A program made the translations under genes and the position numbers. The notes under the pieces were generated by a model. That model saw only the letters and a list, made by a program, of their open reading frames with translations, searched no databases and was not told where the DNA came from. This document shows positions 9,054-14,207 of a DNA stretch of 64,000 nucleotides, piece by piece (the stretch's first letter is position 1; each line of letters opens with the position of its first letter). This stretch comes from Escherichia coli. Its GTDB lineage: Bacteria > Pseudomonadota > Gammaproteobacteria > Enterobacterales > Enterobacteriaceae. The stretch lies in assembly GCF_044647545.1 (NCBI RefSeq), contig NZ_CP172818.1; one strand, given 5' to 3'.

Positions 9054-10418
9054 ATGTCCACAATTACATTGTTATGCATTGCGTTAGCTGGCGTAATCAT
9101 GCTGTTGCTGCTGGTCATCAAGGCAAAGGTACAACCATTCGTTGCTTTGCTCCTCGTCAGCCTGTTAGTCGCACTTGCGGCAGGTATACCGGCGGGCGAA
9201 GTGGGTAAAGTGATGATCGCCGGGATGGGCGGTGTGCTTGGTTCCGTCACTATTATTATTGGTCTGGGCGCTATGCTGGGGCGTATGATCGAACACTCTG
9301 GTGGTGCAGAGTCACTGGCTAATTATTTCAGTCGCAAGTTAGGTGACAAACGAACTATCGCTGCGCTGACTCTGGCAGCGTTCTTCCTCGGTATTCCCGT
9401 CTTCTTTGATGTCGGCTTTATTATTCTTGCGCCAATCATTTACGGTTTTGCCAAGGTTGCCAAAATATCGCCACTCAAATTTGGCCTGCCTGTCGCTGGG
9501 ATCATGCTCACTGTTCACGTGGCGGTACCGCCGCATCCAGGCCCTGTCGCCGCAGCGGGGTTACTCCACGCAGACATCGGCTGGCTAACCATCATCGGTA
9601 TTGCGATTTCTATTCCCGTAGGGGTTGTTGGCTACTTTGCAGCGAAAATAATCAATAAGCGCCAATATGCGATGTCAGTAGAAGTACTGGAACAGATGCA
9701 ACTGGCTCCGGCCAGTGAGGAAGGCGCGACAAAATTAAGCGATAAAATAAATCCACCGGGCGTCGCGCTGGTCACCTCGCTAATTGTTATTCCTATCGCG
9801 ATTATCATGGCGGGTACGGTTTCCGCAACACTGATGCCGCCTTCGCATCCCCTGCTTGGTACGCTACAGCTGATCGGCTCACCAATGGTAGCTCTAATGA
9901 TTGCGCTGGTGCTGGCATTCTGGTTATTGGCTTTACGTCGCGGCTGGAGCTTACAACACACCAGCGACATTATGGGCTCAGCGCTTCCTACTGCGGCGGT
10001 AGTGATTTTGGTTACTGGTGCTGGAGGGGTATTTGGCAAAGTGCTGGTGGAATCGGGCGTCGGCAAAGCCCTTGCCAACATGCTACAAATGATTGACCTG
10101 CCTCTGTTACCAGCCGCATTTATTATTTCACTGGCGCTGCGTGCATCGCAGGGGTCAGCAACCGTAGCAATACTGACAACCGGCGGGTTACTCTCAGAAG
10201 CGGTGATGGGATTGAATCCGATTCAGTGCGTATTGGTGACGCTGGCAGCCTGCTTTGGTGGGCTTGGTGCGTCACATATTAATGACTCAGGGTTCTGGAT
10301 TGTGACCAAATATCTGGGGTTGTCGGTAGCAGACGGTCTGAAAACCTGGACAGTGTTAACGACCATTCTCGGTTTTACCGGATTCTTAATTACCTGGTGC
10401 GTATGGGCGGTAATTTGA
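9054..10418 (+). CDS. ygbN: GntP-family acid-sugar permease
   Basis: 454-aa highly hydrophobic ORF. Confidence 0.85.
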   Translation: MSTITLLCIALAGVIMLLLLVIKAKVQPFVALLLVSLLVALAAGIPAGEVGKVMIAGMGGVLGSVTIIIGLGAMLGRMIEHSGGAESLANYFSRKLGDKRTIAALTLAAFFLGIPVFFDVGFIILAPIIYGFAKVAKISPLKFGLPVAGIMLTVHVAVPPHPGPVAAAGLLHADIGWLTIIGIAISIPVGVVGYFAAKIINKRQYAMSVEVLEQMQLAPASEEGATKLSDKINPPGVALVTSLIVIPIAIIMAGTVSATLMPPSHPLLGTLQLIGSPMVALMIALVLAFWLLALRRGWSLQHTSDIMGSALPTAAVVILVTGAGGVFGKVLVESGVGKALANMLQMIDLPLLPAAFIISLALRASQGSATVAILTTGGLLSEAVMGLNPIQCVLVTLAACFGGLGASHINDSGFWIVTKYLGLSVADGLKTWTVLTTILGFTGFLITWCVWAVI

Positions 10419-10430
10419 CCTTAATAAAAA

Positions 10431-10457
10431 GGTCCGATGGGCATCGGACCTTTTATT
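10431..10457. terminator. Rho-independent bidirectional terminator between ygbN and rpoS (ggtccgatg ggc atcggacc + TTTTATT; A-run upstream)
   Basis: Perfect 9-bp stem flanked by A and T tracts. Confidence 0.8.
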
Positions 10458-10511
10458 GTGCACAGAAAAGGCCAGCCTCATAAGAGACTGGCCTTTATGA
10501 CAGATGCTTAC

Positions 10512-11504
10512 TTATTCGCGGAACAGCGCTTCGATATTCAGCCCCTGCGTTTGCAGGATTTCGCGCAAACGGCGCAGGCCTTCAACCTGAATCTGGCGAA
10601 CACGTTCACGGGTGAGGCCAATTTCACGACCTACATCTTCCAGTGTTGCCGCTTCGTACCCCAGCAAACCGAATCGACGTGCCAGTACTTCACGCTGTTT
10701 GGCGTTCAGCTCGAACAGCCATTTGACGATGCTCTGCTTCATATCGTCATCTTGCGTGGTATCTTCCGGACCGTTCTCTTTTTCATCGGCCAGGATGTCC
10801 AGCAACGCTTTTTCGGAATCACCACCCAGCGGGGTGTCTACCGAGGTAATGCGCTCGTTAAGACGAAGCATACGGCTGACGTCATCAACTGGCTTATCCA
10901 GTTGCTCTGCGATCTCTTCCGCACTTGGTTCATGGTCCAGTTTATGGGACAACTCGCGTGCGGTTCGCAGGTAAACGTTCAGCTCCTTTACGATGTGAAT
11001 CGGCAAACGAATAGTACGGGTTTGGTTCATAATCGCCCGTTCGATCGTCTGGCGAATCCACCAGGTTGCGTATGTTGAGAAGCGGAAACCACGTTCCGGG
11101 TCAAACTTCTCTACCGCGCGGATCAGCCCCAGGTTGCCCTCTTCGATAAGATCCAGCAAAGCCAGACCACGATTGCCATAACGGCGGGCAATTTTTACCA
11201 CCAGACGCAAGTTACTCTCGATCATCCGGCGGCGAGAGGCAACATCTCCACGCAGTGCGCGACGCGCAAAATAAACTTCTTCTTCGGCCGTTAACAGTGG
11301 TGAATAACCAATCTCACCAAGGTAAAGCTGAGTCGCGTCCAGCACACGCTGTGTGGCTCCCTGCGATAACAGTTCCTCTTCGGCCAAATCGTTATCACTG
11401 GGTTCCTCTTCTACTAAGGCCTTTTCGTCAAAAACCTCAACTCCGTTCTCATCAAATTCCGCATCTTCATTTAAATCATGAACTTTCAGCGTATTCTGAC
11501 TCAT
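10512..11504 (-). CDS. rpoS: RNA polymerase sigma factor RpoS (sigma-38)
   Basis: Sigma-70-family protein starting [21 protein letters not shown] (330 aa); the ORF track extends 12 codons upstream to an earlier ATG. Confidence 0.95.
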
Positions 11505-11566
11505 AAGGTGGCTCCTACCCGTGATCCCTTGACGGAACATTCAAGCAAAAGCCTGGTTCCGCCGAT

Positions 11567-12706
11567 TTATCGCTGCGGCAAATAACGCAGCGGGTTTACG
11601 GATTTCCCCTTGTAACGAATTTCAAAATGCAAGCGTGTTGAACTGGTTCCGGTGCTACCCATGGTTGCTATTTTTTGCCCCGCCTTCACTTCTTGTTGTT
11701 CCCGGACCAGCATTGTGTCGTTATGGGCGTAGGCACTCAGGTAATCATCATTATGTTTGATGATAATCAGATTACCGTAGCCGCGCAGCGCGTTACCGGC
11801 ATAAACAACGCGGCCATCTGCAGTCGCGATAATTGCCTGTCCTTTGCTGCCTGCGATATCAATCCCCTTGTTGCCCCCCTCAGAAGCGCCAAAGGTTTCG
11901 ATCACTTTGCCCTCAGTCGGCCAGCGCCAGGTGGAGATAGGCGTACTGGTTGATGTACTGCTGACAGTCGGCTCGGTTGTGCTTGCTGTTGGTACCGTTA
12001 CAGGCGCTGTGACCGTGGTCGCAGTTGGCTTGTTGTTCGGCAACATTTTGTTAGCACTCTGTTCACCCGAAGACTCAGAATACGTAATTGTCGGTTGCGA
12101 AGCAACAGCAACGGTGGAATTTTGTGCAGGCTTGATCACAACTCCTTGCTCTGCTGCGTCGGCCTGGGTAATGGCATTTCCGCCAGTGATTGGCGTACCG
12201 GAAGCATTCCCCACCTGTAAGGTCTGACCGACGTTCAGCGCATATGGTGCCTGAATATTGTTGCGCTGAGCAAGGTCACGGAAATCGTTGCCAGTAATCC
12301 AGGCGATATAGAAAAGTGTGTCGCCTTTTTTCACGGTGTATGTACTGCCGCTATAACTGCCTTTCGGAATGTTCCCATACTGACGGTTGTAGACGATTCG
12401 TCCGTTTTCCATCTGTACCGGCTGCTGAGCTACTGGCTGCACAGGCTGGATTTGCGGTTGTTGAGTAGCCTGAATTTGTGGCTGCTGTACCGGCTGAATT
12501 TGCGGTTGCTGCGCTGTAGACGTCGTCCCCATTTTCGACGGCGGCGTAATCAACATACCAGAATTGGTATTTGTAGGCGCATTGCCATTAACGGAGCTGA
12601 CCGGTGCCGGTGGATTTGAAGTGTCAGAACAGCCTGCCAGCCATAGCGAAACCAGTGACAAAGCCGCAATGCGGCGAACGGTGAATTTTGGGCTTCCCGC
12701 GCTCAT
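11567..12706 (-). CDS. nlpD: Murein hydrolase activator lipoprotein NlpD (LysM + M23 peptidase-like)
   Basis: 379-aa ORF; lipobox LAGC; Gln/Pro-rich repeat; C-terminal M23 domain. Confidence 0.95.
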
Positions 12707-12845
12707 TTATCCCCCAGGAAAAATTGGTTAATAACCAGTGACATAATTACCGTGCAAGGCACCATACTGAACACTGGAAAAGATGTTCACGATACGCTGA
12801 CTTGCGGCAAAATAACCAGGAAAAATCCAGGTATTTCCTCACGTT

Positions 12846-14207
<1,362 letters not shown>

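Follow-up and report, generated by a model that had tools for sequence, protein, structure and literature searches.

How the expression of rpoS is built into the coding sequence of its upstream neighbor, nlpD, and what is to be made of a Gln/Pro-rich repeat encoded by the same gene, are the two questions raised by the stretch of DNA considered here. The stretch, which we refer to as "the window," consists of 64,000 nucleotides of the Escherichia coli chromosome (contig NZ_CP172818.1); over positions 11400-12900 it shows 100% identity to many E. coli genomes in RefSeq, and this segment is matched in 5,421 of 5,426 complete genomes of the species. We regard it as nearly certain that the locus is the canonical nlpD-rpoS operon of E. 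coli, with the rpoS promoter and a leader controlled by small RNAs (sRNAs) lying inside nlpD. The embedded promoter, the 567-nt leader with its sRNA hub and the Gln/Pro repeat of NlpD are already known from a literature that began in 1994-1998. The present analysis contributes figures for how coding and regulatory constraints combine in nlpD, together with a census, of small size, of the alleles of the repeat.

The nlpD-rpoS locus and its relatives

On identical DNA, RefSeq annotates pcm, nlpD (as a murein hydrolase activator) and rpoS. The nlpD gene of the window sits between the other two, with all three on one strand, in agreement with both the synteny and the orthology expected of NlpD. 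The layout is as follows.

12846-13472, minus strand: pcm, from the list of open reading frames and in agreement with the RefSeq annotation of identical DNA
11567-12706, minus strand: nlpD coding sequence, 379 aa, from the list of open reading frames, its Pfam domains and 100% identity to RefSeq nlpD
11505-11566, minus strand: nlpD-rpoS intergenic gap, exactly 62 bp, with the variable apex of the hairpin in its middle (~11530-11565)
10512-11504, minus strand: rpoS coding sequence, 330 aa, intact, with Glu33, annotated as rpoS in identical RefSeq DNA

The TAA stop codon of nlpD occupies positions 11569-11567 and the ATG of rpoS positions 11504-11502, and from these coordinates the distance of 62 bp that a first-pass annotation of the window had given between the two genes is exactly right.

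The K-12 version of this locus, with its promoter rpoSp, was the subject of reports by Lange and Hengge-Aronis (1994), Lange et al. (1995) and Takayanagi et al. (1994), as these are cited in PMC10948607 and PMC2736372. E. coli K-12 resembles the window in the gene order surE-pcm-nlpD-rpoS, in the 62-bp gap and in the lengths of NlpD (379 aa) and RpoS (330 aa), and it is identical to the window in the -10 element, the 3' half of the leader, the DsrA site and the stem at the ribosome-binding site. It differs from the window by ~20 SNPs across nlpD, which include one in the -35 element (position 12101) and the linker changes A45T and P57S, and also in codon 33 of RpoS, which is GAG (Glu) in the window and CAG (Gln) in MG1655. 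A more distant relative is the pcm-nlpD-rpoS cluster of Yersinia pestis, where experiments mapped the major rpoS start to a site within nlpD that precedes the ATG by 547 bp; Yersinia nlpD is driven from within pcm/surE (PMC2736372).

A promoter for rpoS in the middle of nlpD

According to the literature, the main promoter of rpoS is situated in mid-nlpD, 567 nt before the ATG, from where it yields a 5' untranslated region of 567 nt (PMC10372455; PMC8545128; PMC10948607), and several papers name this intragenic promoter as the major one (PMC10372455; PMC2736372; PMC10948607; PMC8545128). A second promoter, 5' of nlpD, yields a weak bicistronic nlpD-rpoS transcript (PMC10948607). When the published distance is counted off from the ATG in the window, the elements of the main promoter would fall at the following positions.

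12123-12140, minus strand: CRP-box-like sequence TGTGATCAAGCCTGCACA, read off the sequence and centered at about -61 from the inferred start
12100-12105, minus strand: probable -35 element TTGCTT, placed by the published 567-nt leader and by its spacing of 17 nt from the -10 element
12077-12082, minus strand: probable -10 element TATTCT, within a conserved 15-column block, ATTACGTATTCTGAG
12071, minus strand: approximate rpoS transcription start, placed 567 nt before the ATG from the literature, with an uncertainty of a few nt

We take TGTGATCAAGCCTGCACA at 12123-12140 to be a candidate CRP site of the rpoS promoter; the left half of this CRP-box-like sequence is poorly conserved outside Escherichia. 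In an alignment with K-12 MG1655, the -35 element carries a single SNP (T at 12101 in the window and G in K-12, which thus reads TTGCGT) and the -10 element none; apart from that SNP, the promoter sequence at the published distance agrees with that of K-12. The whole leader has four SNPs relative to K-12, and there are none in its last ~190 nt.

Sequence alone would not have identified this promoter, because its hexamers match the sigma-70 consensus at only 3/6 (-35) and 4/6 (-10) positions. The first-pass annotation had recommended promoter prediction within nlpD as a check, and a consensus sigma-70 scan of 10400-13000 at a threshold of 4/6 + 4/6 came back empty (0 sites, versus 1.8 expected), since the hexamers of the published promoter lie under that threshold. 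Terminator-like matches in the same interval numbered five, which is within the chance expectation of 3.1 +/- 1.9.

The rpoS leader, its inhibitory stem and sRNA pairing

The 5' untranslated region of rpoS is described as folding into an inhibitory stem-loop that is opened by sRNAs at a shared hub (PMC10948607; also PMC10372455 and PMC8545128), and the sRNAs DsrA, RprA and ArcZ also oppose Rho-dependent termination in this leader (PMC6537650). Applied to the window, the published scheme would have a stress-regulated main promoter in nlpD produce an mRNA with a leader of ~567 nt, almost all of it nlpD coding sequence, while a weaker bicistronic transcript would start upstream of nlpD. The 3' end of nlpD (11592-11628) would pair with the ribosome-binding site and start codon of rpoS (11493-11528) and block translation, until Hfq-dependent DsrA, RprA or ArcZ paired with the upstream strand and freed the ribosome-binding site. 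The parts of the leader that would take part in these interactions are the following.

11671-11700, minus strand: A-rich tract, AACAACAAGAAG...AAAAAA, read off the sequence and near-invariant across species
11592-11628, minus strand: upstream stem strand in the predicted minimum free energy (MFE) fold and sRNA pairing site, encoding C-terminal residues of NlpD
11493-11528, minus strand: downstream stem strand in the predicted MFE fold, holding the Shine-Dalgarno sequence AGGAG (11512-11516) and the rpoS AUG (11502-11504)

The A-rich tract, AACAACAAGAAG...AAAAAA, presumably represents the Hfq-binding (AAN)4 and A6 motifs of the rpoS leader, which were reportedly described by Soper and Woodson in 2008. 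When the segment 11700-11480 was folded as RNA, 11592-11628 paired with 11493-11528 in both the MFE and the centroid structures, so that the Shine-Dalgarno sequence and the AUG are sequestered in the prediction; the predicted stem is consistent with the published hairpin. The folding energy of the hairpin is no better than that of shuffled sequences (z = -0.82), and a search of Rfam at E <= 1 returned no family over the leader, with two sub-threshold chance matches in the rpoS/ygbN terminator region.

For tests of pairing, the K-12 sequences of the sRNAs (DsrA, RprA and ArcZ) were taken from NC_000913.3. Nucleotides 10-32 of DsrA are complementary to 11623-11601, which corresponds to -119 to -97 from the ATG. 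Over a 597-nt leader the best ungapped complementarity to DsrA scored 17, as compared to 10.5 +/- 1.3 for 200 shuffles (maximum 16), and in a windowed duplex scan the DsrA site was the best match, at -31.8 kcal/mol versus -25.5 +/- 3.0. Complementarity to RprA at the DsrA site was equaled by only one of the 200 shuffles; for ArcZ at this site 27/200 shuffles did as well, which is not significant. Neither the windowed nor the unrestricted duplex scans of the leader singled out RprA or ArcZ sites, and full-length RNAduplex runs of all three sRNAs against the whole leader gave long, meaningless duplexes that were no better than those of shuffles. The coordinates of the pairing site place the sRNA hub within the nlpD reading frame, ~30-55 nt before its stop codon. 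Together with the literature, the complementarity of DsrA to 11623-11601 sustains the suggestion of the first-pass annotation that rpoS has a long 5' untranslated region targeted by sRNAs.

Coding and regulatory constraint on nlpD

In the scheme above, a portion of nlpD is constrained at once as protein-coding sequence and as RNA or promoter, and the synonymous sites of the gene were compared across species. Loci from other Enterobacteriaceae were fetched by means of a 22-nt DNA pattern at the rpoS start, at one genome per species, which yielded 78 loci; 58 of these had nlpD in full, its product being 74-99% identical to the NlpD of the window, and made up a set of 59 species when the window is counted. 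From a codon alignment we scored how often species that share an amino acid with the window also share its codon. The scores along the gene are as follows.

Most of nlpD: synonymous identity 0.45-0.56 in the 58 other species
12106-12047 (nlpD codons 201-220, which include the -35 and -10 elements and the start): synonymous identity 0.82
11806-11570 (nlpD codons 301-379): synonymous identity 0.72, 0.88, 0.81 and 0.94 in successive 20-codon bins

Between the two peaks, at 11867-12046, the values are 0.54-0.63, and the difference between the parts of nlpD upstream and downstream of the start site is highly significant (Mann-Whitney p = 4e-10). The LysM codons of the same gene serve as an internal control: their amino-acid conservation is 0.95 and their synonymous identity 0.47, and the synonymous peaks are thus unexplained by protein conservation. 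Column by column, across the 59 species, the block ATTACGTATTCTGAG around the -10 element is at least 95% conserved in each of its 15 columns, third codon positions included, as is the GTTGC of the -35 element. Toward its 3' end nlpD hardly varies between species over 210 nt, and the unusually conserved last ~240 nt hold both the DsrA pairing site and the predicted pairing partner of the ribosome-binding site of rpoS. In the upstream strand of the stem nearly all columns reach a conservation of at least 95%, and the downstream strand attains the same level, with the limitation that the latter overlaps the 22-nt fetch pattern in part, which may have slightly favored species whose partner strand is conserved. 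As both strands are near-invariant, they give no covariation signal within the Enterobacteriaceae; leaders from more distant Gammaproteobacteria are 55-62% identical (PMC8545128). The least conserved stretch is the middle of the gap, at ~11530-11565; other species have gaps of 56-183 nt, and all of the large insertions are located at 11548.

Two other readings of the locus deserve consideration, and we hold each of them to be very improbable. According to the first, expression of rpoS would depend solely on a promoter within the 62-bp gap, or solely on read-through from the nlpD promoters, and nlpD itself would carry no signals specific to rpoS. Minor start sites have indeed been reported near the rpoS start codon, and the bicistronic nlpD-rpoS transcript exists (PMC10948607); the empty consensus scan inside nlpD might also be cited in favor of this reading, but the same scan was just as empty in the gap. 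The middle of the gap, moreover, accommodates insertions of 60-120 nt in other genera. Synonymous conservation is highest at the promoter within nlpD and over the 3' portion of the gene. The papers cited above for the intragenic promoter call it the major one, a dominant start under stress, at the equivalent of a position near 12071, has already been published for K-12, and deletion of the region of the major start in Y. pestis lowered RpoS (PMC2736372). The published main start lies outside the gap, and the placement of the rpoS promoter inside nlpD by the first-pass annotation is borne out by the literature, by the match to K-12 at the promoter and leader and by the synonymous-site peak found there.

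The second reading would accept the synonymous conservation in nlpD and assign it to selection on codon usage, to an antisense gene or to a recent horizontal sweep. Conservation by itself names no cause, and two plus-strand open reading frames, of 92 aa (11675-11953) and 127 aa (11844-12227), do overlap nlpD. The conserved blocks, however, coincide with the independently published -35 and -10 elements and with the DsrA site (-119 to -97), and other conserved segments of the protein, such as LysM, are low in synonymous identity. A recent sweep is excluded by the range of 74-99% protein identity that the 58 species span. An antisense gene in either plus-strand frame was considered and rejected, since the conservation profile does not follow these frames: the highest conservation, at 11570-11686, lies almost wholly outside both of them, and within their span the stretch 11867-12046 scores low.

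Constraint from the rpoS promoter and leader thus stands as the preferred explanation for the synonymous peaks in nlpD, and it has some practical consequences. Synonymous conservation in the 59 species recovers both the promoter and the stem formed by the sRNA site and the ribosome-binding site, whereas the consensus promoter scan and the folding-energy z-scores miss both, which makes the locus well suited as a clean positive control in searches for regulatory signals hidden in coding sequence. Annotation pipelines should not take the 3' half of nlpD as coding alone, and deletions of nlpD are polar on RpoS.

The NlpD protein and its Gln/Pro repeat

The protein that shares its coding sequence with these signals has the following recognizable parts.

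12629-12706, minus strand: putative lipoprotein signal peptide, with the lipobox L-A-G-C at residues 23-26 (Cys26) read off the translation
12212-12340, minus strand: LysM domain, residues 123-165 (Pfam PF01476, E = 2.7e-12)
11591-11872, minus strand: Peptidase_M23 (LytM-type) domain, residues 279-372 (Pfam PF01551, E = 4.6e-33)

Both Pfam matches exceed the curated cut-offs, with LysM N-terminal to M23, and the region that encodes Peptidase_M23 falls wholly within the 5' untranslated region of rpoS. The product is an outer-membrane lipoprotein in which a lipid anchor is followed by a flexible Gln/Pro-rich linker, the LysM domain and the LytM-type (M23) domain, and which functions as a murein hydrolase activator. 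Where active M23 enzymes carry an HxH motif, the NlpD of the window seems to read otherwise, and we take its M23 domain to be a putative degenerate LytM domain that has lost its metal-binding residues and would activate AmiC instead of cutting peptidoglycan itself. In cells that lack envC, NlpD is the sole amidase activator left for cell separation.

It was in the Gln/Pro-rich stretch of this linker, near the N terminus, that the first-pass annotation had noticed a tandem repeat. The repeat is real; its true period is 24 nt and not 18, and it spans 12416-12511 rather than about 12420-12500.

12416-12511, minus strand: repeat array of four imperfect 24-nt units, which makes up this Gln/Pro-rich stretch
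12511-12488, minus strand: first unit (U1), QQPQIQPV
12487-12464, minus strand: second unit (U2), QQPQIQAT
12463-12440, minus strand: third unit (U3), QQPQIQPV
12439-12416, minus strand: fourth unit (U4), QPVAQQPV, degenerate

The 18-mer ctgaatttgcggttgctg of the first-pass annotation is found exactly at 12494-12511 on the plus strand, and an exact 12-nt direct repeat, CAGCCGGTACAG, occurs at 12496-12485 and 12424-12413, its two copies being 72 nt apart. At the level of protein the repetition is far beyond chance: a hexapeptide was seen three times in only 66/20,000 shuffles of the Gln/Pro-rich segment alone, and any hexapeptide was seen even twice in only 109/20,000 shuffles of the whole of NlpD. 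At the level of DNA the copies are 68-86% identical; U1 and U3 encode the same peptide with four synonymous differences, and U1 and U2 differ at 7/24 nt. Because the copies have diverged to this extent, Tandem Repeats Finder, the tool that had been proposed as a check, reported no array in 11000-13200 at a minimum score of 30 (0 rows), and the DNA falls short of the array similarity expected of a variable-number tandem repeat. The 24-nt repeat is best taken as a duplication that arose in frame in the linker long ago and has since diverged. As the units differ mainly at synonymous sites, slippage or recombination between them is rare, and when it does occur it removes or adds whole multiples of units.

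An unusual amino acid repeat in NlpD was first described by Ichikawa, Li, Fu and Clarke (1994; J Bacteriol 176:1630, as cited in PMC2736372), and to the extent that their description is represented there, the window has the same QQPQIQ-type repeat in the same place, without a difference. The Pro/Gln-rich N-terminal repeat is present in the NlpD of E. coli and Salmonella but in none of the Yersinia NlpD proteins (PMC2736372), which in this respect are unlike that of the window.

Repeat copy number across strains and species

The first-pass annotation had suggested that the repeat is a length-variable linker, and the number of its copies does differ between strains. In a spread-out sample of 40 matches to a 241-nt region, 39 had the standard length and one, from strain Z142-6, had a 72-bp deletion that lies between the two exact copies of the 12-nt direct repeat CAGCCGGTACAG and leaves one unit. 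Strain PapRG-04-4 has a 48-bp duplication of U1-U2, which results in six units and an NlpD of 395 aa. Synthetic queries extended the census to 5,419 complete E. coli genomes. A query for the loss of 48 bp found an ungapped match of 193 bp in at least 56 genomes, and no allele among the 5,419 corresponded to queries that were shorter or longer by a single unit (+/-24 nt). A non-standard number of units is thus carried by at least 58 of these genomes (~1.1%), of which 56 have -48 bp, one has -72 and one has +48, where the -48 count is drawn from BLAST rows and rarer sizes may be missed; the same four units are present in ~99%. All of the length changes are in-frame multiples of the unit. Variation in copy number is therefore genuine and rare: the notion of a length-variable linker is correct over evolutionary time and only weakly correct within E. 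coli.

The genomes with the 48-bp deletion include O157:H7 strains TW14359, EC4115, SS17, SS52 and JEONG-1266 and other O157:H7 isolates, as well as unrelated strains with smaller genomes, the sources of which include humans, chickens, water and a giant panda. At 30 flanking SNP columns the haplotype of TW14359 (-48) is that of the O157:H7 strain 380-94, which has the standard length, and ECCWS199 and AMSHJX01 (both -48) carry a different, K-12-like haplotype. Since the allele occurs on two haplotypes, the 48-bp deletion has arisen at least twice. Such recurrence, together with the existence of in-frame -48, -72 and +48 alleles, is what might be advanced for the idea of a hypermutable contingency locus, in which the repeat would switch the length or expression of NlpD at high frequency. 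To this idea we give practically no credence, as only about 1% of the genomes differ, no single-unit changes were found among the 5,419, the units are too dissimilar in DNA to be scored by a repeat finder, the reading frame is kept in every change so that nothing is switched off, and the O157:H7 strains with the deletion, which have similarly sized genomes and one haplotype, are consistent with clonal inheritance and not with frequent switching.

The repeat is not a hypermutable locus. It is improbable, if somewhat less so than the readings discussed above, that the recurrent 48-bp (16-aa) shortening is non-neutral and acts by altering the reach of NlpD from the outer membrane to septal peptidoglycan, and with it the activation of AmiC, or by way of the bicistronic nlpD-rpoS message; a phenotype of the 16-residue shortening is unlikely, and a literature search for a link between the nlpD deletion and O157:H7 TW14359 found no paper among those searched.

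The length of the linker varies across genera as well. Between the cysteine that carries the lipid anchor and the conserved motif NGRIVYNR it measures 63-85 aa, and exact copies of QQPQIQ number zero in 50 species, two in three species, three in four species (the window included) and four in E. albertii. Within E. coli, the census of repeat alleles could provide a minor typing marker for an O157:H7 sublineage.

Insertions at the apex of the rpoS leader hairpin

The gap between nlpD and rpoS, 62 bp in the window, extends to 176-183 nt in the Buttiauxella comparison loci (L041, L043 and L064), where it holds an insertion of ~120 nt at the hairpin apex that folds strongly (-54 to -67 kcal/mol). 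This insertion contains AAGTAAGTGACTGGGGTGAATGAAGG, and because that sequence resembles the ERIC repeat consensus, the insertion looks like an ERIC element within the rpoS leader. Shorter insertions of 45-65 nt occur at the same apex position in Pseudescherichia, Pseudocitrobacter, Phytobacter, Kosakonia and some other genera (comparison loci L010, L013, L014, L019, L020, L028, L046, L047, L054, L060, L061, L063 and L077), giving gaps of 105-125 nt. All of them fold into long hairpins rich in GC, with energies of -41 to -52 kcal/mol, and their sequences differ from genus to genus, which suggests either that REP-like palindromes have been inserted repeatedly or that the apical stem has been expanded.

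The apical part of the hairpin in the window also carries a second in-frame ATG (11538-11540), which precedes the rpoS start codon by 36 nt. A mechanically drawn rpoS ORF that begins at this ATG is 342 aa in length (12 residues plus RpoS). The upstream ATG is probably not used, since the cross-species alignment places it in the poorly conserved part of the gap.

Variation in and around rpoS

Codon 33 of rpoS (11406-11408) is GAG (Glu) in the window, as in O157:H7 and PapRG-04-4, whereas K-12 MG1655 has CAG (Gln); apart from this codon, rpoS in the window is intact at 330 aa. A further SNP, at 12101, falls inside the -35 hexamer of the rpoS promoter and is synonymous in nlpD, the window reading GCT with a -35 of TTGCTT and K-12 reading GCG with TTGCGT. 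The window state, T, is the majority state across the Enterobacteriaceae.

At its 3' end rpoS (stop at 10512) converges with a ygbN-like transporter gene (9054-10418, plus strand), and between the two genes lies the following feature:

10419-10511, two back-to-back terminators, each a hairpin plus T-run

The sole Rfam matches in the region fall within this interval, and all are below threshold and at chance level.

Among 5,426 complete E. coli genomes, five were not matched by the 1.5-kb nlpD-rpoS query and seven were not matched by the nlpD repeat region; a few further genomes covered <80% of the query. Such genomes may represent natural deletions or rearrangements of nlpD/rpoS.

The start of nlpD

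Current RefSeq (PGAP) records do not begin nlpD at the ATG at 12706 but at a TTG codon 45 nt further downstream, yielding a protein of 364 aa as against the classical 379 aa. The stretch concerned is:

12662-12706 (L002, 1240; L001, 1140, in the comparison loci), nlpD N-terminal stretch between the two candidate starts

The TTG start removes the positively charged n-region (15 residues) of the NlpD signal peptide. Comparison of nlpD loci across genera showed that the ATG start of the ORF and the N-terminal peptide are kept.
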